Shown here: piece after piece, positions 1,751 through 59,787 of the stretch | How positions within the stretch are numbered: position 1 is the stretch's first letter | Layout of the letters: each line of letters starts with the position of its first letter | Source: Thermoanaerobaculia bacterium | Lineage (GTDB): Bacteria; Acidobacteriota; Thermoanaerobaculia; Multivoradales; JAIOJS01 | DNA: 64,000 bases | Direction: 5' to 3' | Assembly: GCA_030429235.1 (NCBI GenBank) | Contig: JAUIDB010000002.1 | Coordinates: forward strand, 176,769-240,768 | Notes under the pieces: generated by a model | Told to the model about the DNA's origin: nothing | What the model saw: the letters and a program-made list of their open reading frames with translations, nothing else | Database searches by the model: none | Made by a program: the position numbers and the translations under genes

Positions 1751-2190
1751 TAGACGGCCGGCAGAGTCGAGGCTGAAGATTGAGGTCGTGGCCGCCAGGA
1801 AGAAAGCCTGGCCTTGGATCGTGGCCAGGTCGGTTCCGAGGAGCCACCGCACGGCTACCCACAGAGCCACAGAGGGTCGTCAGGCCGATCGTGAACCACC
1901 GGTTCGAAGCGGAGAAGCAGGGGAACGCGACGATGGCCAGACTGATGAACACGAGGTAGAGGTCGTGGTCAGGGTACTGGCCTGGGCGACGACGAAGGCC
2001 AGAGCGAGCGCGGGCTCCGCCCAGGGCGGGTCTACTCTACGCCCGCGGCCAGACTGCCGCTGCTGGGACGTGGAAAGCGTGTGCATCGCCGCAGACGGTG
2101 CCCTTCGTTGGCGCCAACATCGCACTGGGCATCGCTGACCTCCCTGATCGAATCTCAGGGCGCCAGGTCGGCAAACTCCTGCTTGTCAGA

Positions 2191-3965: not shown

Positions 3966-4561
3966 CTCTTCTCCCCTGGAGCATTACTCGTATTCCAATA
4001 CTAGATAGTTACCTGTTCCAGTGCAACTGTACCGTGCCGCCTTTCGGCCTAGCCCTGGTCCTGGTTCAGGCAGCGGCGCTTGCCACCCACTCCCCAAAAC
4101 CGCGGATTGAACCCCATCTCGACCGTCCGCTCTTCAACCGTCCGCCCCGTCACCTACAAGTTCCCCTCCGCCGTCGCCCTCCCCCGCGACAGCGTCTAGA
4201 TCGCAGAGGGCACGCCGGTCATGGCGTTCGTCCCGCTCACCTTGTCCAATGGATCATTCGGCGTCGACCCATTCGTGTGGTGCACCAGCACCAAAGCGAT
4301 CCCCCTTCTTTTCGGCTGGGCTTCTCTTCATCACGGCGGCCGCCAGCGGATCAGTGGCCAGGCTACAGCGGAACTGTAGGGACTCACAGCTCGATTCTAG
4401 CGAAGGTCCGGTCGACGAACCGATCCTGGCGGGCAGAGGAGAGCGCTGCCTTCGAGGCACGTCAACTAGCGGCGACTCCCGGGGCTCGACTCTGGGCCCT
4501 AGATCGGACTGCCGACCCGCGGCGGTAACCTTTGGCCGCGCATTTCGTTAATACCATCGTG

Positions 4562-7201: not shown

Positions 7202-7347
7202 GGCACTGGGACCGTTTCGTTCCGGGCGTTGGGAGAGCGTAGTCGGCGGGAGAGCGGGGTGGCCGGGGGACGGCCTCGAGTGGCCGGCCACGATGCGGTG
7301 AGGTGACCGGTTGACCGTGGGCGCTCCGATCACGATAGGATCGCGCC

Positions 7348-15678: not shown

Positions 15679-15739
15679 GGTGAGACTCCTTCGGGTTGGA
15701 AGCGAAGAGTCTACTCGATCGATGCGCTCGACCCGGAAC

Positions 15740-30969: not shown

Positions 30970-31009
30970 ACGGCCGTAACTCCAGCAACTGAAAGGAATA
31001 GGGGAACAG

Positions 31010-32992: not shown

Positions 32993-33013
32993 TCTCGGTT
33001 CCCGCCGGTCGGG

Positions 33014-33043
33014 GTCCGGCCCAGCGCAGGCCGGGCCGGACCT
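33014..33043 (+). terminator. GC-rich 10-bp inverted repeat hairpin (ggtccggccc...gggccggacc) between the flotillin and giant genes. It has no U-tract, so it may be an attenuator or RNA-processing site rather than a terminator.
   Basis: A perfect 10-bp stem with a 10-nt loop, read directly from the sequence. Confidence 0.3.
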
Positions 33044-33083
33044 CCCATTCGTCTCGAACTCCCTCTGGAGGAACCCACTGCCG

Positions 33084-42919: not shown

Positions 42920-43068
42920 GGGTCTTGTACGGTCCTCGCGTGCTGGAGGTTGCCGGCCAGGCGGACTTGGGTTCCGGCGCGTGAGCCGCTACAGTGGTGC
43001 CACCTTCAGATTGTCGAATGCCCGCGGGGTCCACGATCAGGTGGTGATCCGCTGGGTGGGAGAAAACG

Positions 43069-46000: not shown

Positions 46001-46629
46001 ACTCCGACGCGGCGGCGGCCCTGTCGGTCGACACTCTGCGCTGGCCGGGCTTCGACCGGTCTCGGATCGCCGCCGAGGAGCGCGACGAGATCCTAGGCCA
46101 CTACGGCAGGATGGTGGAGCAACTCAAGGAGTACGCCGACCGCTGCCTCTACCTCGGGGACCGGGAGGAGCTGTTCCAGGAGACCCGTCGGCAGCGCATC
46201 GTGCTCCACGCCCGCCTGCAGAAGGCGTTTGCGGCGGCGCCTGGCTTCGCCCGTTCGTTGGGGCTCGACGCCGAGCGTGGCTTCGAGGTGCACTCCCTCC
46301 GCCGCGCCCTGCGGTTCCGTCTGGATGGACGGGCGATGCCGCAGGTTTTCGTGTCGGTGACCCAGTCCGAGACGGTGGCGGCCGAACCCGATCGCGGCGT
46401 ACCCCGTCATACCCTGCGGGGAGGTGCCACGCTCGTGCTGGATCTAGCTGAACCGGACGAGCCTCGCTACCTGATCGGCAAGCAGCTGCGGAACTTCCGT
46501 CGTCGACGGGCCGTGGCTGAGTTCCACCGCCAGGTCCAGGCTGATCCGTTGCGCCGACTCTTCTTCGCGGCCCACCGACTCGAGCCCTTCGCGGCACTGC
46601 ACGACCTGGCGGAACACGATCGATCCTGA
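43069..46629 (+). CDS. Cytoplasmic 1186-aa fusion protein: an N-terminal S8 subtilase domain plus a C-terminal HExxH gluzincin-like metalloprotease domain.
   Basis: No signal peptide. S8 triad contexts AHIDTGY (Asp), DNSGHGTGT (His) and GTSSATPQVAAAAAL (Ser). Then IVHETTHAILDG...AFHEGFADL (HExxH plus downstream Glu). Confidence 0.75.
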   Translation: MSAPARVTGSDVVLVKLRPSAQRAARPSRVELEPLHRSSGPAAEFGLDETPRWYLAHAIEAAESPWDQAHGRVARQLGVAAEDLLFVEPDLVHSVFVAPDEIGGRDADRRAVGGDCTPRPQDGRNRKAKGPDEFAWHLGRRYSDLGRAREAVSFAAPRTRIAHIDTGYYPSHETAPRHALPSLERNFVARDFDPSSASDPDNWRLLLDNSGHGTGTLSILAGGAVSAHDDFVMGGAPEAEVVPIRVSDSVVLLRTSSLARGLRYAGESGCAVATLSMGGVPTRAWGDAVDEAYELGLCLVAAAGNHVGNLPPRKLVYPARYQRVIAVCGVMADGRPYKDLGGRALEGCFGPKSAMRFALAAYTPNIPWARFGCPEAVRLNGEGTSSATPQVAAAAALWIEKYKDLLPSDWRRVEAVRHALFTSAKTKAKTRYFGQGILQAHRALSVRPDLTRPKSARSDSSFGFLRVLTGLGLDGRTTREEMFNLELAQRWLLSETLQEIVPDPEVARDLPRARLAQFAEAVIEDPAASRALRRHLLKRYAVLTGRRPPRGPEVESLRPEPPPVAVARPEIPTPAHRRIRVYATDPGLSAAFETAAVGEVTLRVRWENLRKGPVGEYLAVEDTGPRRYEGVNLNHRSLLAQDGWTPSEGNPQFHQQMVYAVAMKTIEHFEGALGRPILWRPRPRPDDPNDDSEFVRRLTVHPHALEEANAYYSPQQIALLFGYFEPSEARGRARNAPVYTCLSHDIIVHETTHAILDGMHRRFNEPSNFDVLAFHEGFADLVALLQHFTIPELLEYEIGRTRGDLEAETLLGKLAVQFGRGIGSREGLRSAIGTVRDGEWERSTPDPGALDRQTTPHGRGGVLVAAVFDALLAIYRRRIADLLRIATGGTGVLPSGAIHPDLVKRLAAEASKAAGHVLGMCVRALDYLPPVDVTFFDFLRALITADFEIVPDDRRDYRVAFVEAFSRRGIRPGEHDEHSDAAAALSVDTLRWPGFDRSRIAAEERDEILGHYGRMVEQLKEYADRCLYLGDREELFQETRRQRIVLHARLQKAFAAAPGFARSLGLDAERGFEVHSLRRALRFRLDGRAMPQVFVSVTQSETVAAEPDRGVPRHTLRGGATLVLDLAEPDEPRYLIGKQLRNFRRRRAVAEFHRQVQADPLRRLFFAAHRLEPFAALHDLAEHDRS

Positions 46630-46647
46630 GTCTGCTATCTTGGGTAG

Positions 46648-47178
46648 ATGAAACGAAACCACCTCTCGGCGCTGATCCTCGGAACTGCCTGCTTCTTCGG
46701 GGCGCTGGCGGCCCAGGCCGAGCGCCCCGCGGTCGGTGACTCGGCACCGGCCCTCGAACTCGTCGACACCGACGGGGTGTCGCATACCCTGAGCGAGGCC
46801 GGGGAGGGACCGCGGATCATCATCTTCTTTCGGGGCTCCTGGTGACCGCACTGCCGCAAGCAGCTAGTTGAGCTGCAGGCAGTGAAGGATCAGTTGGACG
46901 CCCTCGGGGCGGAGATCTGGACGGTCGCTCCCGACGACCCGACCAAGCTCGGCCAGCTGCGGGAGAGCGAGGGACTCGACTTCCCGGTTCTGGTCGATCC
47001 GGACTGTGGGGTGATTCGCGCCTGGGGTCTGCTCAACGAAGCTTCCGGCAAGGTGCCCCATCCGAGGGCCGTTGTGGTCGACCGCGAGGGCGTCATCCGC
47101 TATCTGCGCGTCGACGAGGACTACAGGGTCCGACCCCGAGCGGAGGAACTCGTCGAGGCCGTCCGCGACCTGCCCTGA
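46648..47178 (+). CDS. Secreted thioredoxin-fold (AhpC/TSA-redoxin-like) selenoprotein with an in-frame UGA (Sec) at 46843..46845 in a U-x-x-C active site.
   Basis: Track ORFs 46648..46845 and 46882..47178 are in the same frame (both ≡1 mod 3), separated only by a TGA that falls at the first position of the redox motif: ...IIIFFRGSW[U]PHCRKQLVELQ..., the canonical WCPxC of redoxins. Signal peptide present. Candidate SECIS hairpin immediately downstream. Confidence 0.6.
46851..46882 (+). promoter_or_regulatory. Candidate bacterial SECIS stem-loop, 6 nt downstream of the UGA.
   Basis: CUGCC-GCAA-GCAGCU-AGUUG-AGCUGC-A-GGCAG: an extended stem with an internal bulge, and an apical loop AGUUG (G/U present) 21-25 nt after the UGA. 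Confidence 0.5.
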
Positions 47179-47214
47179 GGGGGTGATCGGTCGCAGCGAC
47201 CGTCAGGAGCGCGC

Positions 47215-47436
47215 ATGGAACGGGCGATCACCGGCTACCACCAGGACGACGAAGGGCACTGGGTGGCGCAGCTCGAGTGTGGTCACCACCAGCACGTGCG
47301 ACACGATCCGCCCTGGACCCTGCGGCCGTGGGTGGTCACCGCCGCCGGGCGCCGCGACAAACTCGGCTTGCTCCTGGACTGCCTGAAGTGCGACCGGGGC
47401 GAACCGCGGGACCGGCCGCTCGCCGAGCCGGTCTAG
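47215..47436 (+). CDS. DUF3565-like small protein.
   Basis: ITGYHQDDEGHWVAQLECGHHQHVRHDPPW pattern. A 73-aa ORF. Confidence 0.5.
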   Translation: MERAITGYHQDDEGHWVAQLECGHHQHVRHDPPWTLRPWVVTAAGRRDKLGLLLDCLKCDRGEPRDRPLAEPV

Positions 47437-47440
47437 CTCC

Positions 47441-49110
47441 CTACAGCTCGAAGGCTATGAACCGGCCCCAGCAGGAGGCGAGCTCCATGCCGCGCTGCAG
47501 GAACGCCGCGATGTAGTAGCGGCCGGTCGAAGCCTCGGCGATCGCCCCGCCGAGGTTCTCGGCGTGGACGATGCCCTTGGGGAAAAGGTTGAGGTGCATG
47601 TCCTGGTAGTACTGGTCCAGGGGATACATGCTGTCCCAGTCCTGACCGAACTGATCGATCAGCTTCTGGTTGGCCTCGGCGAAGGTCTTCGGGTGCATAC
47701 GCCGTTGGATGGTGTTCATCGGGTGCTCCATGGCCACGCAGTCGATGCCGAGCCAGCGCACCTGCCGCTCGATACACCAGGCGGCGAAGTCGGGAGACGG
47801 ACCGGGGTGCCGGATCATGTAGCGGAACTCGTCCGAGTCGGGGCTGTTCCAACCGAAGCGGTGCCAACCCGTCTTGATCAGCAGGATGTCGTGCGGTCGC
47901 ACCTCGATCCGATCCTCGATCATCTGCGGGGTGTAGACACTGCAGTCGCTGACCTCCTCGGAGATGTCGACGATGACTCCTTCGCCGTGCCAATGGTCGA
48001 GCGGTACCTCACCGAGGGTACGGCCCGCGGCCCAGAAGTGCTTTTCGCCGTCCATGTGCGTCGCGAGGTGGAAGCTAGCGCGGCAGTGGGCGTTGTTGCG
48101 CCCGAGGCCGAAATCGAGGCCGCCGACGCGCTTGGTGTACTTCAAACTCAACGGCTCGTAGTTGGCCCACTGCGGCGTCTGGACGCTGAAGGGCAGGGTC
48201 AGGTCCATCGCCTCGCAGTGGTCGAGATCGCCGTAGAACGACTCCTCGTCGTGGTCGTCGGGAGGCGTCAGCGCTACCACCCGGCACCAGGCTGACTCGA
48301 CCTCCATGAAGGGGATCGGCTGCACCATGACCCAGGCCCGGCGGCTGCCCAGGTTGGCGAGGTCACCGCCGAGGGACTCGGCCAGCAGCAGCCCGGCCTT
48401 GGGCAGCGTGGTGTGGGTGAGGCGCTGGTATTCGTGGGGCGGAAAGACCTCCTCCCAACTCTGGCCGGTCGCAGCGCGCAATGCGGCTTCGGCCTTGTCG
48501 AACTCGTTCGGATGCAGGAAGCGGAGGTTGGTGTTCATCGGATGCTCGGCGCTGCCGCAGTCGACGGCCACGAGCTTGAGCTTCCGCTCCAGGGCCCAGG
48601 GGAAGAAGTCGGGAGAGGGGCCGGGGTGGCGCAGGTAGTAGCCGAACTCCTTGTTCTCGACCCCTCCCTGGGCCTTGGGGTTGGCGACGTCGGGATGATC
48701 CCAGGTGTAGCGGTGGTAGCCGGTGTTGATGACCAGGATGTCGCCTTCGCGCACCTCGACCCGTTGTTCGATCATCTCGGGGGTGTAGAAACCGTAGTCC
48801 GAAACCGCGTCCGAAAGATCGACGATCGCGGTCGGGCCGCAGAGCCGGTCGAGCGAGATCTCCGCGATCGACTCGCAGCCCGAGTGGAAGGCGCGCGGCC
48901 CTACCAGGTGCGTACCGGTGTTGTTCGACCATTCGATCAGCTGCCCGTTGGCTCCCTGTCCGCCTCCCCACGATCCCGTCAGGCGCTTGAAGAAGTGAAC
49001 CTGCAACGGCATCTCGCCGGGCCAGGGTGGGGTGAAGATGCTGAGCGGTTGGGTGAGGTCGTGCCAGTGGGCTCGCGTCAACGGATGGGGGGTAGTCGCT
49101 GATTCGTTCA
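47441..49110 (-). CDS. Tandem double cyclase-family (kynurenine-formamidase-like) protein.
   Basis: Two repeats of about 270 aa, each with an HxGTHxD-type motif (SNNTGTHLVGPRAFH and FHLATHMDGEKHF) and the conserved stretch RHPGPSPDF. Confidence 0.65.
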
Positions 49111-49308
49111 TGGGGTCTCCGAGGTCATGAGTGCCGATTCTACGGCGTACGTTCCCTGAGGCGAGTTGGCCCGGTCCGAGAAGCCCGGCCGAGGGTGGAT
49201 CTCCGTAACAAATGCCGCCTGCGACCGTCTCGAAGTCGCTATCCTGAAGCCACAACGTAGCGAACCAGCGACGAGGTACCAGCAAGTGGGGTGGGGGGTG
49301 AAAAGAAG

Positions 49309-50827
49309 CATGGTCGGTGATCGATTGGAGTGCCGTTTCGAGGTCTGCCCGCGGATCGGGCGGGGCGCGGTGCGGACGAACCTGCTGCTCGCCTTGCTAC
49401 TGTTACTCGCCGGTCCTTCCGGGGCCCAGAGCGAAGTCCGGGCGGACCTGCCCGCGTCCGCGGTCGATCTCCACACCCACGTCTTCAACGCGGGGTACCT
49501 CCCCGTGGAGGGGATCATGGTGTCCCGGGGCGTGCCGAAGGTGGTGGCTCGGCTGCTGGCTCGCTTCCTCGAGTCGCGGGTCGAATTCGCCGACCTCTCG
49601 CAGAGCCGCGACGAACTGTTTGCCGCCGACCTGCTCAATCCGCTCGAACTCAGTGAAGCGCAGGCCAAGGCCGAGCTGTTCAACCGCGGCGACCTGCCCG
49701 ACCTGACTTCACGGCAGCGCCGCCAACTGCGCCGCTACCTGCTCGAGGCCAGTCCCGAGGCGGATCAGGACCTCGATCGTCTCTCCGACGAAGAGCTGGT
49801 CGCCCGCGGGCTCGAGGAGGCGCCGTTGACGGCCGACGGAGGTAAGAACACCTTCCGCTTCCTGCTGTTACTGCTGCGGGACGAGGTCACCATCGTGCGG
49901 ACTTTGCGGGACGAGTACCCGATCGGGCGTTTCGTCCACCACATGATGGACCTGGAGAAGGCCTACGACGACCGGCCGATCCTGGAGTTCCGCGACGAGC
50001 AGATTCCGCGCATGCAGGCATTGGGCGAGATCTTCCCCGACGAACTGGTCTGGTTCGTCGCCTTCGATCCCTTCCGACGCGATCAGTCACTCGAGATCGT
50101 CAAGGCCGCAGTCCGGGGCGGGGCCGCGGGGATCAAGTTCTATCCCCCCAGCGGTTACCGCGCGGCGAACAACGACATCCCGAAGAAACCGCGCTGGTAC
50201 CAACGCGCGAAGAGGAAGCAGTGGAAGTCCCGCTATCGTGATCTGAGGGACGCGGACCTCGACCGGATCAACGACCGGCTCTTCGCCTGGGCCGCCGAGC
50301 GAGGGGTCCCGATCCTCACCCACTGCACCCCCGCCGGGTTCGAGGCCTCCAAGGGGTACGGGAAGATGAGCGACCCGGACCACTGGAAACCGGTCCTCGA
50401 CAAGTACCCGAACCTTCGCATCGCCTTTGGGCACGGGGGCGGGGGAGAGGGGTGGTTCGCCGAGGCGCCTTGGGACCTCGCACGTCCGGCGACCTACGGC
50501 GAGAAGGTCTACGCCCTGGTCACCCAGTACGAGAATGCCTACCTCGGGGTCGGCTACTGGGACGAGATCCTCGACGGCGACCCCGCGAAGGACTACCGCG
50601 GCCACCTGCAGCGCCGGCTGGAGCGGTTGATCGACCGTTCCGGCGACCCCTACCGCCTCGGCGACAAGATGCTCTACGGCACCGACTGGCACATGGTGTC
50701 GAAGCTCGACGACCGCCGCCGCCTGCTCACGGAGTTCCTCGACCTCTTCGATCAGCCGCAACTCCGCCCGTGGCGTGACCGGCTCTTCGTGGGCAATGTC
50801 GAGCGCTTTTTGAACCTGACCGAATGA
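49309..50827 (+). CDS. Secreted amidohydrolase-superfamily (TIM-barrel metallo-hydrolase) protein.
   Basis: Signal peptide LLLALLLLLAGPSGAQS and a DLHTHVF metal-binding motif. Confidence 0.65.
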
Positions 50828-50854
50828 CCTAGCTCAACCCAGGAGGTCCCATCG

Positions 50855-52507
50855 ATGAAGAAGCAACGACTCTCTCTCCCGACGCTCTCGACCCTCCCGA
50901 CCCGGACGAACCGAAGCAGGCTGCGTTTCGGGCCGACCCTACTGCTTCTCACCTTGGCCAGCTCGCTGGTGGCGGCGCAGACCCGTGGTCAGGCTCCGAA
51001 CCTGTTCGAGTTCCTCGATGCCGGTGACGTGCAACTGACCGAGGACCAGACCGGCCGGCTGCAGGCGTTCGAGGAGGACCCGACTGCCGGCGACGTCCAA
51101 CTCGTGTTGATCGACCTCGGACTGGCCGACATGGCGGACTCGATGAATCTGAATCTCATTCCCGGTCACGAGATTCCCCTGACTACCACCCGTCGCGATG
51201 AGCGGAAGGCCGGCGACTACAGTTGGTTCGCCGAGGACCGAGACAGCGGGAGTTCGGCCATGTTGGTGGTGCAGGGCGACGAGATCGTGGGCACCGTGCG
51301 GTCCTCCGGGCAACTCTTCCAGGTGCGCCCCCTGGGGGACGGCATCCACGCGGTGATCGAGGTCGAGCAGGACAAACTGCCGCCGGACCACCCGGAGGAG
51401 TACGACGAGCTGGACCCACAGCAGATGGACCCGGGGCCGGCGGGTGATCAAGGGGACGCGGCGATGGCGGACGCCTGTTCACCGATCGACGTCATCGTGG
51501 CCTATACCCCGGTCGCCGAAGCGCAGGCCGGCAACATCGGCGGTCTCATCCAGCTGGCGATCGACGAAACCAACCTCTCGTACGCCAACAGTGCCATCCA
51601 ACCCCGTCTGAACCTGGTCCACAGCTACGAGACCAACTACACCGAGTCCGGCAGCATGAGCCAGGATCGTGACCGCTTCCGCATCGTAGGGGATGGCCAC
51701 ATGGACGAGATCCACGGATTGCGAGATACCCACGGCGCCGATGTCGCGGTGTTGGTCACAGGGCGGGGCGGCTTCTGTGGCATCGCCGCCGACATCGGTG
51801 CCGTGGCCTCGACCGCCTTTGCGGTGGTGGGCCAGAACTGCGCCACCGGCTACTACTCCTTCGGCCACGAGATCGGGCACCTACAGGGTGCACGACACAA
51901 CCCGGAGGCCGATCCCACTCCTACCCCCTTCCCGTTTGGTCACGGCCTGTTCCACGCCCCCGACAGCTGGCGTACCGTGATGTCCTACAACTGCCCCGGC
52001 GGTTGTACGCGCGTCACGCAGTGGTCGAATCCCGATGTCGACTACCAGGGTACGCCCACCGGGACGGTGGCGGGGAACGACAACGCCCGAGTCCTCGACG
52101 AGACCGCGTGCACGATCGCAGGGTTCAGGAGCACGGCGCTGGCCGGGATCACGGTCACGCTGGCGCCCGACAGCCTCTCCCTGGGCTCCTCGGAGAGCGC
52201 GACGGTGGTGGCCACGGTCTTCGACGGTGGGAGTCCTCTGGCCGGGGAGTCGGTCTCCTTCTCCAGTGGAGATCCCGGCGTGGCGACGGTGACGGCGATG
52301 GGCACGACGGATGCCAGCGGACGTGCCTCCGGGACCGTGGAGGCGGTCGGCAAGGGTGAGACCGCGGTCGAGGCCTCGATCCAGGGGAGTACGGCTCGGT
52401 CGGAGGTCGAGGTCGTACCCGGCGCGTCCCTGGTCAGCCTGTCGCTGGGGCTGCTACTGGCCCTGCTCTTCCTGTGGAGGCGGGACCAGACGCTCGCGGC
52501 GCGATGA
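50855..52507 (+). CDS. Secreted metzincin (M72/reprolysin-like) protease with Ig-like (Big_2-like) repeats and a PEP-CTERM-like sorting tail.
   Basis: Signal peptide. GHEIGHLQGARH (HExxHxxGxxH). C-terminus reads EVEVVPGASLVSLSLGLLLALLFLWRRDQTLAAR*: a short motif, a hydrophobic helix, then an Arg cluster. Confidence 0.75.
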   Translation: MKKQRLSLPTLSTLPTRTNRSRLRFGPTLLLLTLASSLVAAQTRGQAPNLFEFLDAGDVQLTEDQTGRLQAFEEDPTAGDVQLVLIDLGLADMADSMNLNLIPGHEIPLTTTRRDERKAGDYSWFAEDRDSGSSAMLVVQGDEIVGTVRSSGQLFQVRPLGDGIHAVIEVEQDKLPPDHPEEYDELDPQQMDPGPAGDQGDAAMADACSPIDVIVAYTPVAEAQAGNIGGLIQLAIDETNLSYANSAIQPRLNLVHSYETNYTESGSMSQDRDRFRIVGDGHMDEIHGLRDTHGADVAVLVTGRGGFCGIAADIGAVASTAFAVVGQNCATGYYSFGHEIGHLQGARHNPEADPTPTPFPFGHGLFHAPDSWRTVMSYNCPGGCTRVTQWSNPDVDYQGTPTGTVAGNDNARVLDETACTIAGFRSTALAGITVTLAPDSLSLGSSESATVVATVFDGGSPLAGESVSFSSGDPGVATVTAMGTTDASGRASGTVEAVGKGETAVEASIQGSTARSEVEVVPGASLVSLSLGLLLALLFLWRRDQTLAAR

Positions 52508-54579
52508 CCAAGGCCGGCCCTCGACCCGCCCCCGAGTGGCGCCGTTTCGCTTTGGTGGTAGGGCCGGTGACCCTCGCCCTGGTCGGGCTCTACCTGGCCC
52601 GGGTCGAGCTGCCGTTCCTGGCTCCGCTGGGCGTGGCGACGGCCGAGATCGCCGGCCGGATCCTCGCGCTGTCGGGGATCGAGACGTTGCGAGCGGGCGA
52701 CGTTCTCAGCCACCCTTCCGGGTTCGGCTATCAGGTCGCCTACTCCTGTACCGGGCTCTTCCAGTGGGTCTTTCTGGTGGCTGGCCTCCTCGGGCTCCGC
52801 TTGACGGGGCGCTCGCGCTGGCTTCGTCTGCTGGTGGGCACGGGAGTTCTCGCGGCCGTCAATCAGCTGCGCCTGGTGGTTCTCTTCTGGCTCGGGTTGT
52901 TCGCTCCCCACTGGTTCGATTTCGCGCACGAGGTCCTCTTTCGGTCCTTGATGCTGGCAGTGGTGCTCCTGGTCTGGTTCTGGCGTCCCGCGCCGCCGCC
53001 GACAGACGCCGCGGTCACTTCGCCCCCAGGGGTCGGTTCCGAGAGTCGATCGTGGGGGCAATCGATGGCGTGCCTCGGGATGCTCCTGTCGGTGCTTTTG
53101 GCCGCCCCGGCCTGCGCGCAACCCCAGGAGACCACCGCCTCGGAGCAGGCCGAGCGCGAGCTCATCTCTCTGGAACGCGTGCAGAGTGAAGTAGCGGTCG
53201 AGCTCCGCCAACGCAGTCTGGAACGGGTCGACGGAGCCGTCTTTCAGGCCCTGACCGAGGCCGTGTCGCGAGAGCAGATCCTCTCCCAGGTGCCACTGGA
53301 TCGGGCCGAGGTCGGGGGATTCTTCGATTCGGCGGAGGGTTTGCAGGTCCTGGCCATTCTGCAGGATCCGGCGGTGTCGGAGTTGCAGCTGGTGCGAGCG
53401 GACCTCGCGGCGCTCCGCGAGCCGTCGGGGTTGATCGAAGAGCGGGACCTCGGCAATACCGCCAGCCTGCTGGGATTCGAGGTTCTCGACCCCCGATTCT
53501 CGGCCGTCGACGACCACACCGTGGCCTGGCAGGGTTCGTTGGCCGGCGAGAACGACGGCGATCTCGTACTGGTGGTGGACGAGGCGGGGGTCTCCGGCTT
53601 GATCCGGCGCGGCTCCACCCTCTACTCGGTGGTGCCGATGGGTCGTGAACTGCACGCCATCACTAGCTCCGAGCCCGCGGTCGGACTGCGCTCGCTCGAC
53701 GACGCTGGACCGCCCGGCGGCGAGGCGGGCGATGTCGACTCTGGAGATCAGGCCGAGACTCCGCCCGGCGAGAATGGGGCGGGGGCCGAGGCCACCGCAC
53801 CGGACGATGAAGGAGACGAGGCCCCGGTGGCGGACGATGCGCCCGATCTCTGCGCGGCCGGCTGGGTCGGCCCACCAGTGGAGATCGAGATTCTGGTCGG
53901 CGCGACTGCGCTCGCTCGAGAGCAGGCCCGCCGCCGAGGACGCCACCTCGACACCTTGATCCAGCTGGCCAAGTTCGTCGCCGACACCACCTTCAGCAAC
54001 AGCGAGATCCCGGTCACCGTCCGCCTCGTCGGGATCGAATCGGTCGACTACGAGGAAGAGTGCTCCCAGCTCTTCCAGTGCGCGCGGGACCTCGCACGAC
54101 CGGTCGAGAGCCTGGAGAATCTCATCGAGCGACGTCGCGAGACCAAGGCCGACGTGGTGATCCTGGTCCTTCACGAGGAGGACGACACCAACTGTGGCTG
54201 GGCCTCGGGGATCGGGGTCGAGGCCGGTCAGGCCCTGGCTGTCGTCAACTGGCAGTGCCTCAATGATCGCTTCTCGTTCATCCACGAAGTCGGTCACCTC
54301 ATCGGGGCCTGGCACAACCAGGAAGCGATCACCAGTCCGTTGCCCAAGGACCCGCGGTTCGCCCACGGCTTCGTCGATTGCTCGGAGAACCCGTTCTCGA
54401 CCGTGATGGGCGCTTCGAACTCCTGTCCGGGCGGCGTGGGACGACTGCTCGCCTGGTCCAACCCGGCGGTGCCCCACGCCGGACGCGCCACCGGCGTCAA
54501 GGAGAGTAGCGATGTCGCCTGTCTTTGGTCGTTGCGCGCTCGAGAGGTGGCGGGGTTCGGGGAACAGCTGACCCACTAA
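52504..54579 (+). CDS. Fusion protein: an N-terminal exosortase/archaeosortase-like polytopic membrane core (~170 aa) plus a C-terminal periplasmic metzincin domain paralogous to the previous gene.
   Basis: ATGA start/stop overlap with 50855..52507. N-terminus has four predicted TM helices, a Cys in AYSCTGLF and NQLR about 40 aa later, consistent with the Cys/Asn/Arg signature of exosortases. C-terminus has FIHEVGHLIGAWH and CPGG...WSNP, as in the neighbour. Confidence 0.55.
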   Translation: MTKAGPRPAPEWRRFALVVGPVTLALVGLYLARVELPFLAPLGVATAEIAGRILALSGIETLRAGDVLSHPSGFGYQVAYSCTGLFQWVFLVAGLLGLRLTGRSRWLRLLVGTGVLAAVNQLRLVVLFWLGLFAPHWFDFAHEVLFRSLMLAVVLLVWFWRPAPPPTDAAVTSPPGVGSESRSWGQSMACLGMLLSVLLAAPACAQPQETTASEQAERELISLERVQSEVAVELRQRSLERVDGAVFQALTEAVSREQILSQVPLDRAEVGGFFDSAEGLQVLAILQDPAVSELQLVRADLAALREPSGLIEERDLGNTASLLGFEVLDPRFSAVDDHTVAWQGSLAGENDGDLVLVVDEAGVSGLIRRGSTLYSVVPMGRELHAITSSEPAVGLRSLDDAGPPGGEAGDVDSGDQAETPPGENGAGAEATAPDDEGDEAPVADDAPDLCAAGWVGPPVEIEILVGATALAREQARRRGRHLDTLIQLAKFVADTTFSNSEIPVTVRLVGIESVDYEEECSQLFQCARDLARPVESLENLIERRRETKADVVILVLHEEDDTNCGWASGIGVEAGQALAVVNWQCLNDRFSFIHEVGHLIGAWHNQEAITSPLPKDPRFAHGFVDCSENPFSTVMGASNSCPGGVGRLLAWSNPAVPHAGRATGVKESSDVACLWSLRAREVAGFGEQLTH

Positions 54580-54598
54580 CCGCGAGAGGAGAGGAACG

Positions 54599-55702
54599 GT
54601 GACGGAAGCAGAGAGTTCGAGATCGGATCGGCAACGGACTAGGTTTGCAGTGGGTCTGACCGCATTGGCCTTGATCGGAGTGTCCTTGGGAGGTCGGGCT
54701 GCGGCGGGAGAGGCCGCTCGTTCCGACCTCTCGGCGACGCCGTCCCTCGCCGCCGTCGAGTGTCTCACCTACTCGCAAGAGCGCGGACTCTTCTCGCAGC
54801 TCGGCACGGCCTACGAGGTGCTGGACGACCAGTTCGCACGCAGCGATGCGATCGTGGCTTCGGAGATCGTCTTCGGGGCCGACAGCCGATTGGTGTTCCC
54901 CCGGATGGAGTACTCCAAACGGGGACCCTCCCACTGCGCCGATCTCTATTTCGTGGTGGCGGATCGGTTGACCAGCGACGAGGCGGCTGCGGCCACCATC
55001 ACCTGGGATCGGGCGTTCCCGGCCGATCCTCCGCTCGACCGTGGCTGGGCGCCGGCGGGAGCGGGAGGCGTGGCTCCGGGCGAGGACGGCAGCGACGGCT
55101 CTCCCGGAGGGCCCGGCAACGCGGGCCGCGACGGCGCGCACGCGCCCAATCTCCTGGTCATCCTGGGGGAGCTCACAGGCCCGCTAAGCCTCGACTTGCG
55201 GGGACAGGATGGAGGCACCGGAGGAGTGGGGCAGAGCGGTGGCCCGGGTGGAGCTGGGGCCAGCGGCCGCGCGGCGGTCCCCGGATTGCTCGACTGCCGG
55301 AAAGGACCGGGGGCGGGAGGCGACGGTGGTGACGGCGGCCTAGGAGGCCGCGGGGGTCGCGGTGGCAACGGCGGTTTGGGGGGCACGGTGATCGTGATCG
55401 CTCCCGAAGAGCAGGCGGCGACCATCGATGAACTGCTCGACGTGACCGTCGATGGCGGGGCCGCGGGCGAAGGCGGCGCGCCAGGCATTGGGGGCACGGA
55501 AGGACGTGCCGGACGAGAAGGCAGAGCCACGCCCCCGTGCCGATCGGCTCGTCGCGATGGAAAGACCGGGCAGAGGGGGGGCGACGGGGTGGAAGGGGAG
55601 GATGGTGACCCCGGAGAGTCGGGGGACTACTACCTGCTTCCCCTACCGGCCGAGCAGTTCGAGGAAGTTCTCGGGGCGGCCTTTGGTCGAGCCGCCGAGT
55701 GA
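54599..55702 (+). CDS. Secreted Gly-rich protein with collagen-like G-X-X triplet runs.
   Basis: GEDGSDGSPGGPGNAGRDGAH, GQDGGTGGVGQSGGPGGAGASG and GKTGQRGGDGVEGEDGDPGESGD are perfect G-X-X repeats. Hydrophobic N-terminus. Confidence 0.5.
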   Translation: MTEAESSRSDRQRTRFAVGLTALALIGVSLGGRAAAGEAARSDLSATPSLAAVECLTYSQERGLFSQLGTAYEVLDDQFARSDAIVASEIVFGADSRLVFPRMEYSKRGPSHCADLYFVVADRLTSDEAAAATITWDRAFPADPPLDRGWAPAGAGGVAPGEDGSDGSPGGPGNAGRDGAHAPNLLVILGELTGPLSLDLRGQDGGTGGVGQSGGPGGAGASGRAAVPGLLDCRKGPGAGGDGGDGGLGGRGGRGGNGGLGGTVIVIAPEEQAATIDELLDVTVDGGAAGEGGAPGIGGTEGRAGREGRATPPCRSARRDGKTGQRGGDGVEGEDGDPGESGDYYLLPLPAEQFEEVLGAAFGRAAE

Positions 55703-56688
55703 AGACGGGGGCCGTACTGCTCGTGTTCTGGCTGGCGCCCACCGTCCTGTGGGCGCAGCCCGAGGACGAAGTCGCCTACCTGGCGGAGCTGCTGCTGCAG
55801 GCTTCGGAGCTGCCGAAGCGCGCCCTGGTGGTAGGGGTGGAGAGCTACGATGACCTCCCCGACGTGACCAACGCCACCAGCGATGCGACGAGAGTCTCGC
55901 TGGCGCTCAAGGACCTCCAGTTCGCGGTCACCCCGGCCACCGACCTCAACCGGCGCCAGTTCTTCGAACACCTCGACGACTTCGTCGATCGCTCGCTCGC
56001 CGTCTCGCTTCCCGAACAGGCGGTGGTGGTCTTCTACTTCTCCGGCCACGGCTTTCGCTTCGGGGACGACAACATGCTGGTACCGGCCGATGCCGCAGCG
56101 ACTGGCGAGAGCCTGGTCGACAAGGCCGTGCCCCTCTCCCACGTGGTGCAGCGGATCGTGGACAAGAACGTGGCCCTGGCCCTTTTCTTCATCGATGCCT
56201 GCCGCACCGAGCTCACTAGTTTGCAGGAACTCGAACTCGAGGTCGGCTTCGCGGAGCCGCTGGTGCGGCACAACACCTACTACGGCTTCGCCAGCGGCTA
56301 CGGCAAACCCTCCTTCAGTTTCGTGCGGGAGGGGGACGCCAACAGTCCCTTTGCGAGGTCGCTGGCCACTCGGTTGACGATGCCGGGGGTCGAACTCCAC
56401 AGTCTCTTCGAAGGGGTCCGTCAGGAAGTGGCCAACCTCAGCGAGCAGCGTCAGGTGCCCCACGAACACAAGGACTTCTTCGGTGACTACTACTTTGCCT
56501 TGACGCCCCAGCATCGGAACGCTCTCAGGGGACAACTGTCTACGGCCCTCATTCTCGCCGCCCTGCGTGGACCGGGGTGCGTGCGCTCGTATCTCGCTTC
56601 CGATCCCGCGAGTGAGTTTTCGACCGCCGCCCGCGCCTGGCTTCTGGACCAGAACGAGCCGCTGAAAGGTAGCGTCCATTGCGAGTGA
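55699..56688 (+). CDS. Secreted caspase-like (peptidase C14) domain protein.
   Basis: Signal peptide MKTGAVLLVFWLAPTVLWAQP. RALVVGVESYDD, FYFSGHG (His) and LFFIDACR (Cys) dyad contexts. Confidence 0.65.
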   Translation: MKTGAVLLVFWLAPTVLWAQPEDEVAYLAELLLQASELPKRALVVGVESYDDLPDVTNATSDATRVSLALKDLQFAVTPATDLNRRQFFEHLDDFVDRSLAVSLPEQAVVVFYFSGHGFRFGDDNMLVPADAAATGESLVDKAVPLSHVVQRIVDKNVALALFFIDACRTELTSLQELELEVGFAEPLVRHNTYYGFASGYGKPSFSFVREGDANSPFARSLATRLTMPGVELHSLFEGVRQEVANLSEQRQVPHEHKDFFGDYYFALTPQHRNALRGQLSTALILAALRGPGCVRSYLASDPASEFSTAARAWLLDQNEPLKGSVHCE

Positions 56689-57536
56689 TGGGACCGCTTT
56701 CCCAGGTGCGGCTGCGCGGTGGCCTCGGCTGGCTGCTGCTGGTGGCGTTGACCGCTCCGGCCGGCGCCGAATCGGAACCGATCGCCAAGGCCCGGCAGAT
56801 GGCGCGCGAGAACCTAGAACCCAAGATCGTCTTGGGGGAACCGGTCCCTCTGGAAGAGCGCCCCTGGCAGGTAGCTCTGGTGCTTTCGGAGCTGACGGAC
56901 GACTACCGAGGGCAGTTTTGCGGTGGAACCCTGATCGTTCCGGACTGGGTGTTGACCGCGGCCCACTGCGTCGACGGCGACACCACCACCGAGGAGGTCG
57001 AGGTCCTCTTCGGGAGCGCGACGCTGGATCAGAGCGGCAATCGGATCGCCGTTCGTCAGATCCGCCTCCATCCGGCCTGGAACCCCGCCACCCGAGACCA
57101 CGACGCGGCGCTACTCCAACTCTCGGGCGCCGTCCGCAGCCAACCCCCGCTCGCGCTGGCCGCCTTAGAGCAGCTGACCGCGGCCGAAACCCTGGAGGTG
57201 TCCGGCTGGGGCAAGACGGACGAGTTCGTCGTCTTCAAGTCCCGGGGCCTTCTGCAGGTGCAGCTCCCCCTGGTCAGCCACGAGGACTGCACCCAACCCG
57301 ACAGCTACGGCCAGGCGATCACCCCGGCGATGTTCTGCGCCGGTCGCCGCGAGGGAGGGGAGGACGCCTGTCGCGGTGATAGCGGGGGCCCCGCCACGGT
57401 CACCGTCGAGGGGGAGGAGCGGTTGGCCGGCATCATCAGTTGGGGCGAAGGCTGTGGCCGGGCCAAGAAGTACGGCGTCTACACCACGGTGCCCCAGGTC
57501 GCCGACTGGATCCGCTCCGTGCTGTCGTCAGGGTAG
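56688..57536 (+). CDS. Secreted trypsin-like (S1) serine protease.
   Basis: LTAAHC, DAALLQL and GDSGGP triad. Signal peptide. ATG overlaps the upstream stop (tgATG). Confidence 0.85.
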   Translation: MGPLSQVRLRGGLGWLLLVALTAPAGAESEPIAKARQMARENLEPKIVLGEPVPLEERPWQVALVLSELTDDYRGQFCGGTLIVPDWVLTAAHCVDGDTTTEEVEVLFGSATLDQSGNRIAVRQIRLHPAWNPATRDHDAALLQLSGAVRSQPPLALAALEQLTAAETLEVSGWGKTDEFVVFKSRGLLQVQLPLVSHEDCTQPDSYGQAITPAMFCAGRREGGEDACRGDSGGPATVTVEGEERLAGIISWGEGCGRAKKYGVYTTVPQVADWIRSVLSSG

Positions 57537-57713
57537 AGCTGGCGAGGCCTCAGGCAGAGCTGGCGAGGCTTCAGCCGTTTCGCAGGGATCGATCGACTTT
57601 CCCGAGACCTCAGCCGTTTCGCGGGGTTCGATCCCGTGCCTCCATCACGAACGGCTCGCGGAGCGGACTCCTGCTATCCTCCGCGGCGTCGGAACCAAAC
57701 CAGACGATCCACG

Positions 57714-59039
57714 ATGCGAGCACGCAACCACCACCGACGACACCGTCCGCTTCTCTTGGCCGCCTCGCGGGTGGCCGTGGGTGTGGCTCTGCTGTCGGCC
57801 GCGGCAGCGGCCCCCGCCGCGGCCTCGCCGCTCGGACCCGGTACCGAACTCTGGATCACCCTCGGCGCTGATGCCTTCGATCTTCTGGCCGGTCAGGCCG
57901 ACCACCAGGGCCTGGAGCGCCTCGAGGAGCAGGACGGGGTGGTGCTGACGCAGGTCCGATTCGGGGATCTAGCGGGTCTCTCGGCCTCGCTCCACGAATC
58001 GACCGGCCGCTGCGCCGGGTTCCTGGCTCACCGCACGCTGGCGCAGGCCCGCGCCGCCCTGGCGGTACCGCGCACCAGGAGCTCCCTGGCGGGTGGCGTG
58101 TCGTACTCGATCAACCAGACCGAATGGGTCACGAGTCTCGAGGCCGATCTGGACAAACCCTCGATCCTGGCCACCATCGATCACCTGTCGACTGCCTACC
58201 ACAACCGATACCACGCCTACTCTTCGGGGGCCGAGGCGGCGGAGTGGATCCGCGACCTCTGGCGGAGTTACGCAGAGACGCGACCCGAGGTCACGGTGGA
58301 ACTGGTGTCCCACCCCGGCATCAATCAGCCGTCAGTGGTGTTGACGATCCCCGGTTCGACCTTCCCCGATCAGCACGTGGTGCTGGGAGGACATCTCGAC
58401 TCCGTCAGTCCGGGGACCAGCAACCCGAACTTCCTGGCGCCGGGGGCCGACGACAACGCCTCCGGCATCGCTGTGCTCGGCGAGATCGCGCGCGTCGTCC
58501 TGGCGGCGGACTTCCGACCCCAGAGGACGGTCCAGATCATGGGCTACGCGGCGGAGGAGATCGGTCTGGTGGGATCGCAAGATATCGCCGACGGCTACGA
58601 GGCGGCCGGCCGCGACGTGGTGGCGGTGCTGCAGTTCGACATGACCGACTACTTCGGATCGGTGGAGGACATGGCCTTCCTCAGCGACTACACCAACGCC
58701 GATCTCACCGCCTTTCTCGGGCAGCTGGTCGACACCTACCAACCGGTACTCGCCTGGACCACCAGCGCCTGTGGGTACGGCTGCTCGGACCACGCGGCCT
58801 GGCATCGGGCCGGCTATCCCGCCTCTATGTCGGCCGAAGCCCGCTTCGGGCAGCACAACCCCGCCATCCACTCCACCTCCGACACGTTGGCGACGCTCGG
58901 CCACAACGTGGACCACGCCTTCAAGTTCGCCCGCCTGGGTCTCTCCTTCCTGATCGAAATCGGCAATCCGGAACGGTTCCTCTTCCGGGATGGTTTCGAG
59001 ACGGGATCGACCGAGGCCTGGTCCCAGTCGGTGCCTTGA
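57714..59039 (+). CDS. Secreted M28-family zinc aminopeptidase carrying the C-terminal DGFETGSTEAW tail.
   Basis: HLDSV, ADDNASGIAVLGE, GYAAEEIGLVGS and DM..DY metal-ligand motifs. C-terminus reads ...ERFLFRDGFETGSTEAWSQSVP*. Confidence 0.85.
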   Translation: MRARNHHRRHRPLLLAASRVAVGVALLSAAAAAPAAASPLGPGTELWITLGADAFDLLAGQADHQGLERLEEQDGVVLTQVRFGDLAGLSASLHESTGRCAGFLAHRTLAQARAALAVPRTRSSLAGGVSYSINQTEWVTSLEADLDKPSILATIDHLSTAYHNRYHAYSSGAEAAEWIRDLWRSYAETRPEVTVELVSHPGINQPSVVLTIPGSTFPDQHVVLGGHLDSVSPGTSNPNFLAPGADDNASGIAVLGEIARVVLAADFRPQRTVQIMGYAAEEIGLVGSQDIADGYEAAGRDVVAVLQFDMTDYFGSVEDMAFLSDYTNADLTAFLGQLVDTYQPVLAWTTSACGYGCSDHAAWHRAGYPASMSAEARFGQHNPAIHSTSDTLATLGHNVDHAFKFARLGLSFLIEIGNPERFLFRDGFETGSTEAWSQSVP

Positions 59040-59052
59040 CCGAGGTCCCCCG

Positions 59053-59760
59053 ATGACGGATCGGAGCCACGCTCCGCAATGCTCCGGTCGACGGAGCCCG
59101 CCCAATCGCTGGGTCCAGGTCCAAGCCGAGAAGATGATCGGTCAACACGGTTTCCTCGGCGTGCCGCGGGAGACCTTCCAGGAGGGCGGATCGGCCCACT
59201 TTCAGCGGCTCCTGGCCCACGGGTTAGGCCCCGATTCGAAGGTCCTGGACATCGGCTGTGGTGTCCTCCGGATCGGCAGCTGGTTGATTCGCTTTCTCGA
59301 ACCTGGTGGTTACGCGGGGATCGAACCCGCCCGCGACCGGGTGGAACTCGGCTGTCGGTACCTACTGAGCCCGGAACTCCTGGCCGAAAAGAGACCCCGC
59401 TTCGACCACAACGCCGTCTTCGACAGCTCGGGGTTCGAGGATCAGTTCGACTTTTTCCTCGCCTGCTCGATCTGGACGCACTGTGGCAAGGCGCAGATCG
59501 CCACCCAGCTCGAGGGGTTTGCCCGCCATACCGGGCCGAGCGGAGTGTTCCTAGCCTCCTACCTCCCGGCGACCGACCCGGAGGAGGACTACCAGGGGGA
59601 TCACTGGGTGGGAACTAGCCACGAGTCGACCATCCCCGGGATCGTGCGCCACTCGCTGGATTGGATCCGTTCTGCCTGCGTTCACCATCAGCTCCGTGTG
59701 ACCGAGCTGCCGGGGATCGATTGCGACAGTCAGTACTGGCTCCGCGTGGACAAGTCCTGA
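59053..59760 (+). CDS. Class-I SAM-dependent methyltransferase.
   Basis: VLDIGCGVLRIGSWL (motif I). Confidence 0.65.
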   Translation: MTDRSHAPQCSGRRSPPNRWVQVQAEKMIGQHGFLGVPRETFQEGGSAHFQRLLAHGLGPDSKVLDIGCGVLRIGSWLIRFLEPGGYAGIEPARDRVELGCRYLLSPELLAEKRPRFDHNAVFDSSGFEDQFDFFLACSIWTHCGKAQIATQLEGFARHTGPSGVFLASYLPATDPEEDYQGDHWVGTSHESTIPGIVRHSLDWIRSACVHHQLRVTELPGIDCDSQYWLRVDKS

Positions 59761-59787
59761 CGACAGGCCGTGCGCGGCCGCTGCCCG

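Follow-up and report, generated by a model that had tools for sequence, protein, structure and literature searches.

Dedicated sorting systems and the locus under study

Enzymes of the exosortase/archaeosortase superfamily possess nearly invariant Cys, Arg and His residues, which constitute a putative catalytic triad; a preprint by Haft (10.1101/2023.06.07.544157) describes both these residues and systems in which one enzyme is dedicated to one target encoded by an adjacent gene. A 64,000-nucleotide stretch of the genome of a Thermoanaerobaculia bacterium of the Acidobacteriota (assembly GCA_030429235.1, contig JAUIDB010000002.1, positions 176,769 to 240,768 of the forward strand; the whole stretch is called the window here) contains a pair of genes that may constitute such a system: gene A (50855..52507, + strand), which encodes a secreted pro-metzincin with a three-part C-terminal tail, and gene B (52504..54579, + strand), in which an exosortase domain is fused to a second pro-metzincin within a single open reading frame (ORF). 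With a probability of roughly 0.65, genes A and B are a dedicated one-enzyme-one-substrate sorting pair that belongs to a sister branch of the XrtH/IPTLxxWG-CTERM system, the protease half of gene B being a passenger.

XrtH (TIGR04177), which acts with IPTL-CTERM signals (TIGR04174, PF18203), is the best subfamily model for gene B and its close relatives. The similarities include the small size of the enzymes (~160-200 amino acids, aa), the same positions of the Cys, N-x-x-R and His residues, and tails with Pro at position 2, Trp at position 7 and Gly, Ala or Ser at position 8. The differences are that gene B falls below the 86-bit cutoff of the XrtH model and belongs to a clade separate from the canonical XrtH of Bryobacteraceae and Solibacteraceae, that canonical loci have a gene for an XrtH-associated membrane protein 3' of the enzyme and lack a neighbouring protease gene, whereas the clade of the window has one adjacent protease target, that the tail in the window (VPGASLVS) lacks the Trp, and that XrtH is not characterized by a metzincin fusion. 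The IPTL-CTERM literature yielded one incidental mention, of an S-layer protein (PMC8671808).

The dedicated systems described by Haft (JDVT-CTERM/MrtJ) are similar to the pair in the window in having one target per enzyme, consecutive co-oriented genes, and homologues of the target elsewhere that either lack the tail or carry another sorting domain (here Por_Secre_tail, CARDB or FG-GAP). However, the enzymes of the JDVT, MYXO and Synerg systems are CPBP glutamic intramembrane proteases, in contrast to the Cys/Arg/His exosortase found here, and none of the described dedicated systems has an enzyme fused to a paralogue of its cargo. VesB of Vibrio cholerae is reported to require both its GlyGly-CTERM domain and rhombosortase (PMC6219818; PMC3237569). 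The VesB system resembles the one in the window in its secreted-protease cargo, three-part C-terminal signal and polytopic membrane enzyme, and thus proteases have a precedent as cargo of C-terminal sorting (PMC6219818). Rhombosortase differs in being a rhomboid serine protease unrelated to exosortases, with many targets and no protease fusion. In Haloferax volcanii, substrates with a three-part signal (PGF-CTERM) are processed by archaeosortase A (ArtA) and lipid-anchored (PMC7157517). ArtA belongs to the same superfamily as gene B and represents the sole branch with experimental helix removal and lipid attachment, which makes it the model for the chemistry proposed below, but it is archaeal and larger, has many substrates and recognizes a PGF motif, and the lipid attachment has been shown for ArtA, not for a bacterial XrtH-like enzyme. 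The exosortase E/protease family (XrtE, VPEID-CTERM) combines an exosortase with a CPBP intramembrane protease; our literature search found nothing on XrtE or VPEID-CTERM. XrtE would be a precedent for an exosortase-protease fusion, with a CPBP partner and not a soluble, exported, prodomain-bearing paralogue of the cargo. An exosortase fused to a soluble metzincin was not found described in the literature.

Conservation of the protease-exosortase pair

Full-length gene B was compared by phmmer with 1.84 billion cluster representatives, giving 4584 matches of which the best 150 were examined, and further loci were obtained from genome and metagenome scans with an alignment of three sortase domains and from look-ups of gene A homologues. 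Among these best 150 of 4584 matches, the sortase half was present, beyond a 98% identical variant (P0001), only in P0033 (199 aa, 44% identical) and P0083 (159 aa, 43% identical); all the remaining matches were to the protease half only. A word-indexed protein search found only the 98% variant with full gene B and nothing with the sortase domain, for which hydrophobic words probably swamp the candidates. P0033 and P0083 are each encoded directly downstream of a gene fragment for a metzincin with an immunoglobulin-like (Ig) domain and a tail (ending in TTVVKVPTVSPWGLLLLAALGSLLLRRHVRSTDV and EVEVPRDVPAGAAWALLLLALIAYLALRRQEGRAALGG, respectively).

A tail-bearing protease gene is located directly 5' of a small exosortase gene in 10 of the 10 loci for which upstream DNA is available (the window, L005, L009, L010, L011, L012 and L014-L017). 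The upstream gene product is a metzincin with the tail KAPALSTWSLLLLAGAAPLALRRRARA in L005, a Thermoanaerobaculia metagenome-assembled genome, where the sortase gene (177 aa) follows by a GTGA overlap; a 936-aa HEFGH enzyme with a Big_1 domain and the tail VPAASAWGLAILALL...RR in L011, and an S8 subtilase with Big_1 and the tail VPGLSDAGLLVL...WRR in L012, each accompanied by a sortase; a metzincin with Big_1 and a tail in L014, L015 and L017 (sortases of 168, 212 and 170 aa, respectively); and a metzincin with a tail in L016, of which the sortase was found by tblastn. L005 is syntenic with the window over three genes, encoding an amidohydrolase (46% identical), the metzincin (63% identical in the catalytic domain of the gene A orthologue) and the sortase (37% identical). 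The cargo comprises three protease types (metzincin, S8 subtilase and HEFGH enzyme) that have only Big_1 and the tail in common, and the Ig-plus-tail module on the proteases of L009-L012 is 37-51% identical to that of gene A.

Adjacency in 10 of 10 loci is the hallmark of dedicated, one-to-one sorting in Haft's sense. Because orthologues with the same type of tail are found directly 5' of the same small exosortase in at least nine other loci, gene A is very likely the dedicated target of the gene B sortase, a relationship that a first-pass annotation of the DNA had proposed and that the survey of relatives bears out.

Two observations concern the cargo itself. Big_1 with the IPTL-like tail acts as a movable cassette (L011, positions 1803-4613; L012, positions 232-2136; 37-46% identical to the window), and the catalytic region of the 936-aa HEFGH metalloprotease of L011 has no Pfam match.

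The exosortase domain of gene B

The N-terminal ~160 aa of gene B are supported by profile comparison as a member of the exosortase/archaeosortase family. TIGR04178 (exo_archaeo; cutoff 23 bits) matches full-length gene B with 37.9 bits (E 1.6e-9) and its N-terminal 209 aa with 41.1 bits (E 1.7e-10). Exosortase H is the best NCBIfam subfamily (59.6 bits for full-length gene B and 63.1 bits for the domain alone, E 3.5e-16 to 2.9e-17), and there are weaker matches to ArtB, XrtX, XrtM and others. NCBIfam and Pfam scans of gene B found no match to CPBP, rhomboid or other membrane-protease families.

The predicted domain (aa 11-162, 52534..52989, + strand) is delimited by the TIGR04178 and XrtH matches, by hydropathy and by the helices of AlphaFold2 (AF2) models. 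By hydropathy its four transmembrane helices are located at approximately aa 14-36, 78-96, 109-134 and 140-162. The predicted catalytic residues are Cys82 (the tgt codon at 52747..52749, in YSCTG), Arg123 (in NQLR, aa 120-123, 52861..52872, which also includes Asn120) and His142 (in FDFAHE, 52927..52929). C82, N120, R123 and H142 are invariant in an alignment of 12 sequences that spans canonical XrtH and the protease-linked clade, and the triad is also found in L014, L015, L016 and L017. The positive-inside rule fits a cytoplasmic N-terminus (K3, R7, R13, R14) and a cytoplasmic Arg-rich loop (RLTGRSRWLR, aa 97-106), which would place Cys82 at the outer end of helix 2, His142 at that of helix 4, and the end of the core inside.

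The first-pass annotation had recognized most of this pair by inspection: an exosortase/archaeosortase-like core of four helices, with Cys in YSCTG and NQLR about 40 aa later, in an ORF that overlaps the preceding one in ATGA fashion (gcgcgATGAcc, with the gene B start codon at 52504 overlapping the gene A TGA). Hydropathy, a check of the codon and the TIGR04178 profile are all in agreement with that description. The outcomes that the annotation had named as refuting it (a better fit to a family such as CPBP or rhomboid, Cys and Asn/Arg that vary among homologues, or a frameshift between the halves) did not occur.

The gene A tail as a relative of IPTLxxWG-CTERM

The sorting signal of gene A (52415..52486, + strand) consists of VPGAS (aa 521-525, 52415..52429), the 15-residue hydrophobic helix LVSLSLGLLLALLFL (aa 526-540, 52430..52474) and WRRD (aa 541-544, 52475..52486), and is followed by QTLAAR. 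These three parts, at aa 521-544, are as the first-pass annotation had read them; its designation of the tail as PEP-CTERM-like stands as regards the three-part layout and fails as regards the type, for TIGR02595 gives no match and the motif reads VPGAS. In a six-frame scan of the 64-kb window, gene A was the sole real ORF with a hydrophobic and basic C-terminal tail, the other match being one spurious antisense ORF.

On alignment, the tails of the relatives have the consensus [VAT]-P-x-x-S-x-W-[GAS], then a helix, then RR(R), and at least 18 proteins of the gene A clade carry [VAT]P-x-x-S-x-W-[GAS] with helix and RR. This motif has in common with IPTLxxWG the Pro at position 2, the Trp at position 7 and the Gly (with Ala and Ser variants) at position 8. 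The tails of relatives score 12.2-20.2 bits on TIGR04174 (the closest being 20.2, 18.6, 18.0 and 16.2) versus a cutoff of 20.5, and up to 19.9 bits on PF18203 versus a cutoff of 20.8; the 'midcut-by-XrtH' model also matched them. The window tail scores 14.3 bits on a hidden Markov model (HMM) of the 17 other tails, compared with 6.8 +/- 2.2 bits for versions shuffled in the part before the helix, of which 0 of 500 reach 14.3. By these comparisons the gene A tail appears to be a degenerate relative of IPTLxxWG-CTERM, not of PEP-CTERM.

The enzymes are related in a similar way. On the XrtH model the protease-linked clade scores 55.5-87.5 bits, and only P0033 passes (87.5 versus 86), with gene B among the lowest. 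The genome scan also found five sortases of Bryobacteraceae and Solibacteraceae, and the two of these that were scanned, L002 and L007, are true XrtH (132 and 121 bits). In three of the five (L002, L003 and L006), XrtH is followed by an overlapping ORF of ~250 aa (L002, positions 6494-7246; L003, positions 6434-7189; L006, positions 5106-5861). NF041730 (XrtH-associated membrane protein) matches the two of these ORFs that were scanned (L002 and L006) with 23-30 bits versus a cutoff of 35, and may, as curated, be too strict for Acidobacteriota; it has no match in gene B or gene C, the next gene downstream in the window. For none of the five canonical XrtH loci with upstream DNA is the gene directly 5' one for a tail-bearing protease. 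In a neighbour-joining tree, canonical XrtH forms one clade and the protease-linked sortases another, in which the sortase of the syntenic L005 is nearest to that of the window. Thus, to judge from profiles and phylogeny, the system in the window would be a sister branch of XrtH/IPTL-CTERM that falls outside both the enzyme model and the signal model now available.

The protease encoded by gene A

Gene A encodes a protein of 550 aa, a secreted pro-metzincin (M72/adamalysin-like) and predicted dedicated exosortase substrate, with the domain order signal peptide, prodomain, metzincin catalytic domain, Ig domain, tail. A strong Shine-Dalgarno sequence (aggagg) precedes it. The signal peptide (aa 1-41, 50855..50977), with predicted cleavage between VAA and Q, was read from the sequence by eye. 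The zinc-binding motif HEIGHLQGARH (aa 338-348, 51866..51898) lies in a domain that matches Reprolysin_5 (55.5 bits, cutoff 27), Reprolysin_3 (44.7 bits) and Reprolysin_4 (36.2 bits), all above cutoff, and together these features agree with the earlier description of gene A as a secreted HExxHxxGxxH protease. The Ig domain ahead of the tail (52154..52408) is Big_1-like, with a Pfam score of 30.9 bits that is a little under the cutoff of 34.9.

There are 805 homologues of gene A, some of which are named peptidyl-Asp metalloendopeptidase by JGI. Genes A and B are only distant relatives of Mep72 (NF052434, an equivalog model with a cutoff of 645 bits), scoring 81.2 and 26.6 bits, respectively. 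A sequence search of the PDB found no relatives of gene A or of the gene B protease. Outside the tail-bearing clade, the homologues of gene A either lack a tail or end in other C-terminal modules (Por_Secre_tail of the type IX secretion system, CARDB, or FG-GAP/VCBS). The G+C content of third codon positions is high in both gene A (0.84) and gene B (0.81), which is typical of coding sequence here.

The second metzincin and the fusion in gene B

Gene B encodes 691 aa in one ORF, of which the XrtH-like exosortase domain is followed by a Pro-rich linker (aa 163-187, 52990..53064; predicted local distance difference test score, pLDDT, <50), a fifth hydrophobic helix, and a pro-metzincin. The fifth helix (MACLGMLLSVLLAAPACA, 53065..53118; aa 187-205 by hydropathy) is predicted to be an internal signal peptide: it begins at Met188 (53065), a possible internal start with tgggggcaatcg just ahead of its ATG, and ends in A-C-A before Q-P, the classical -3/-1 pattern of a signal-peptidase-type site. 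Beyond it are a beta-rich prodomain that aligns to that of gene A (aa 206-400, pLDDT ~85-94) and an acidic disordered linker (aa 401-445), together at 53119..53838, and a metzincin catalytic domain (aa 446-691, 53839..54576, pLDDT >90) with an intact zinc site, HEVGHLIGAWH (54283..54315). Pfam matches are to Reprolysin_3 (42.9 bits), Reprolysin_5 (33.9 bits) and also Reprolysin_4.

The proteases of genes A and B are paralogues, as had been noted at first pass: a BLASTP alignment spans 407 aa at 32% identity (E 7e-33) and includes both the prodomain and the catalytic domain. The full-length AF2 model of gene B (mean pLDDT 76.7) is confident for the prodomain (aa ~245-400), exceeds 90 for the catalytic domain (aa 446-690), and has disordered linkers at aa 161-209 and 409-443. 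Foldseek matches this model best to 6o38 (E 3e-12), followed by ADAM17, ADAMTS4, ADAM33 and snake-venom metalloproteinases (E 1e-6 to 1e-5), so the catalytic domain as modelled has an adamalysin-type fold.

The third-position G+C content of the gene B frame is 0.74-0.92 in each 150-nucleotide window from 52535 to 54455, also across the linker that joins the halves. Four contigs, of which one (267 kb) is from NCBI and three are from Logan assemblies, encode exactly the same 691-aa protein. L001, from an independent run (SRR24075716), is 98.3% identical over 3117 nucleotides, with 52 substitutions, no insertions or deletions, and the same ORF. Relative to L001, all 7 changes in the sortase domain (aa 1-160) are synonymous, as are all 11 in the last 219 codons of gene A, a stretch that includes the tail. 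Gene B has 13 non-synonymous differences, four of them in ten linker codons (aa 164-173) and two in the catalytic domain. By this pattern of substitution, both halves of gene B are under purifying selection. Taken together, the sequence features of genes A and B lie well outside what chance would give.

Origin and fate of the fusion

The fusion is restricted to the lineage of the window. Among 267 fetched proteins searched by HMM, the window protein and its 98% variant are the only long ones with a sortase domain, and the 90% identity cluster has these two members; the other sortases of the clade are all standalone proteins of 159-212 aa. The gene that follows the sortase varies: it is on the opposite strand in L005, L011, L014 and L015, encodes a patatin in L017, and encodes a lipoprotein in L010. 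In L010 (positions 871-1062), the following gene overlaps the sortase stop codon by ATGA and begins with a lipoprotein signal peptide (LLAGC); such tight placement is the kind of layout from which a stop-loss fusion could arise. In the window, gene B heads a same-strand run of hydrolase genes, encoding the Gly-rich gene C product, a caspase-like C14 protein, a trypsin and an M28 peptidase, and no terminator-like site was found on the + strand in the scanned interval 46600..60000.

The protease half of gene B is nearer to the standalone secreted proteases P0002 and P0003 (35-38% identical) than to gene A (32% identical), and an origin as a recent tandem copy of gene A was rejected on these identities. 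Residue 26 of P0002 aligns to residue 211 of gene B, and the N-terminal signal peptides of P0002 and P0003 fall at the fifth helix. The gene B linker (25 residues) approximately equals in length a cytoplasmic tail like those of standalone sortases plus ~7 extra codons (SRSWGQS), and probably represents a former sortase C-terminal tail and a former intergenic spacer. The clade of the gene B protease lacks the tail: of the 149 other listed matches to gene B, only P0053 has a tail, and P0053 belongs to the gene A clade.

The simplest history is that a gene for a secreted protease settled just 3' of the sortase gene, and that the stop codon of the sortase was then lost. Since the core of four helices is expected to finish on the cytoplasmic side, the fusion would have been topologically harmless: the old signal peptide would still insert in-to-out and export the pro-metzincin. 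The restriction of the fusion to one lineage, the standalone relatives, the tail-less protease clade and the retained signal peptide are together explained by a neutral or weakly selected read-through fusion, without functional coupling. The earlier proposal of a self-contained protease sorting and activation module is not upheld by a fusion confined to a cluster of two members, with a protease from a tail-less clade.

Two other roles were considered for the segment between the halves. The linker with the fifth helix (SRSWGQS-MACLG...) was rejected as an internal signal of the 'midcut-by-XrtH' type, as it did not match that model and its predicted orientation, in-to-out with no basic cluster after it, is the reverse of what such a signal needs. 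A lipoprotein fate of the fifth helix is unlikely from a reading of the sequence, in which A-P-A before the Cys misfits a lipobox.

Proposed mechanism and alternative explanations

In the mechanism proposed for the pair, gene A would be exported via its Sec signal peptide and kept in the inner membrane by its C-terminal helix, with the RR cluster facing the cytoplasm and VPGAS at the outer face. The exosortase domain of gene B, with Cys82, Arg123 and His142 towards the outer face, would cut gene A at or near VPGAS and take off the helix, and the cleaved protein would be released or, by analogy with archaeosortase A, transferred to some acceptor. The ATGA overlap would couple the translation of the two genes. 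The fifth helix of gene B, inserted in-to-out after the four helices of the core, would still export the pro-metzincin, the site between ACA and Q after residue 205 probably having been kept; the halves may part by the action of signal peptidase after insertion, or the protease may stay tethered, or it may start separately at Met188.

Several points weigh against an interpretation of genes A and B as an active XrtH-like sorting pair with a passenger protease. The window tail is the most degenerate of its family, keeping V, P and S, with a Val in place of the Trp that is found in 14 of 18 tails, and it matches no curated sorting-signal model (IPTL-CTERM at E <=10, and likewise PEP-CTERM, TIGR02595). 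Gene B is below the cutoff on XrtH (TIGR04177; 60-63 bits versus 86). Pfam PF09721 (Exosortase_EpsH), which the first-pass annotation had proposed as a check, does not match the N-terminal domain of gene B (E <=1); precomputed matches to it exist for P0033 and P0083, both standalone homologues, and for the sortases of L014, L015 and L017. The AF2 models of the sortase domain, and with them the geometry of the triad and the topology, have low to moderate confidence (pLDDT 56.8 with a three-sequence alignment and 60-75 in the full-length model), and a PDB search with the sequence of this domain gave no relatives, the best match being to an unrelated enzyme (E 0.17). The literature search found no experimental work on any XrtH system, and cleavage of gene A is proposed by analogy. 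Cleavage after the fifth helix is predicted from a sequence pattern, and the stop-loss scenario from positional correspondence, with no intermediate form found.

Among alternatives, a variant of the preferred explanation, not exclusive of it, is that one ORF yields two products, the protease being made mainly from the internal ATG at 53065 (Met188) and the full fusion being minor or tolerated. Met188 opens a canonical signal peptide, corresponds to the start of the standalone proteases P0002 and P0003, and has a weak purine-rich Shine-Dalgarno-like site 7 nucleotides upstream (tgggggcaatcg). However, the GGGGG motif is far weaker than the aggagg of gene A and the gagaggagagg of gene C, and no stop codon intervenes upstream, so each ribosome that translates the sortase also makes the fusion. 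Internal initiation as the main source of the protease is considered less likely than not.

Functional coupling is another alternative, in which the gene B metzincin is tethered by the sortase site and acts on gene A or vice versa, for instance in removal of a prodomain, and the fusion has been selected. Both proteases are paralogues with a common prodomain and catalytic domain, the genes would be translationally coupled, by the predicted topology the gene B protease, the sortase site and gene A share one side of the membrane, and purifying selection on both halves is apparent in two diverged assemblies (0 non-synonymous changes in the sortase and two in the catalytic domain). Such selection on each half would be expected, however, even if the fusion were neutral. 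Moreover, the fusion is present in one lineage only, and at least nine other loci manage without a second protease; the gene B protease does not come from the clade of tail-bearing cargo, and a signal-peptidase-type site has been kept after the fifth helix. Coupling is accordingly considered unlikely. The same low likelihood is assigned to the specific form of an adaptive fusion in which an uncleaved fifth helix tethers the metzincin, so that removal of the tail and processing of the gene A prodomain would be coupled in one machine; if true, it would provide the first example of an exosortase linked physically to a soluble enzyme as its partner.

It is very unlikely that the gene A tail is an unprocessed membrane anchor and the N-terminal domain of gene B an inactive, degenerate sortase that serves only as an anchor. 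The degeneracy of the window tail, its failure to match curated models and the XrtH score of gene B, among the lowest of the clade, are what such a loss of function would lead one to expect, but Cys, Arg and His are all kept, no amino acid has changed in the sortase domain or the tail over 1.7% nucleotide divergence, the motif part of the tail surpasses shuffled controls on the family HMM, and the adjacency in ten loci is hard to account for without an enzyme-substrate relationship. Finally, the joining of two separate genes by a missed stop codon or a frameshift, as an assembly or sequencing artefact, is excluded for practical purposes by the unbroken single-frame G+C signal, the identical protein on four contigs and the variant from another run, with its 52 substitutions and no insertions or deletions in the same ORF.

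Genomic neighbourhood

Genes A and B are part of a packed same-strand run of secreted hydrolase genes (49166-59039), which encodes in order an amidohydrolase, A, B, gene C, the C14 protein, the trypsin and the M28 peptidase. The Gly-rich gene C (54599-55702) encodes 367 aa with no family match; the caspase-like C14 gene is joined to it by a GTGA overlap, and the trypsin gene also by an overlap. Farther away, an S8 subtilase is encoded at 43048-46629 and, on the minus strand, a Trypsin_2 protein at 13597-15834. The organism appears to be highly proteolytic, and none of the other hydrolases of the window has the sorting tail.

The intergenic region between the trypsin and M28 genes (57532-57633) contains direct repeats, two of 21 nucleotides (starting at 57532 and 57553) and two of 31 nucleotides (starting at 57564 and 57603, 87% identical), of which the 23-nucleotide core is found nowhere else in the window (0.01 chance matches expected). 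Elsewhere, an overlapping pair of genes (30980-38582) encodes a 670-aa ORF without a Pfam match and a protein of 1872 aa with DUF3686 ('ATPase involved in DNA repair', 668 bits), DUF7902 and an AAA domain, and a 614-aa ORF on the minus strand (47441-49285) has two tandem Pfam Cyclase domains (PF04199).

Implications for exosortase systems

Bacterial exosortases are widespread, and to our knowledge their chemistry is essentially uncharacterised, both as to release versus transfer and as to the acceptor. The general picture of exosortase systems is unchanged by the locus described here, in which the fusion may be an evolutionary accident. In its modest version, the finding is possibly that of a new minimal exosortase subfamily, the protease-linked clade of ~170 aa, dedicated to single secreted proteases, which would supply an enzyme with its own reporter for finding the acceptor to which bacterial exosortases attach their substrates. 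Such a system is very small and conserved, consisting of a ~170-aa sortase and one adjacent substrate that is an assayable protease, in at least ten loci with three cargo types, which recommends it as a one-to-one model pair and as a candidate for an NCBIfam-style subfamily model and sorting-signal model. The natural fusion in the Thermoanaerobaculia lineage is a test case for the function of such fusions, and it places a constraint on topology, in that export of the protease should require the four-helix core to end on the cytoplasmic side.

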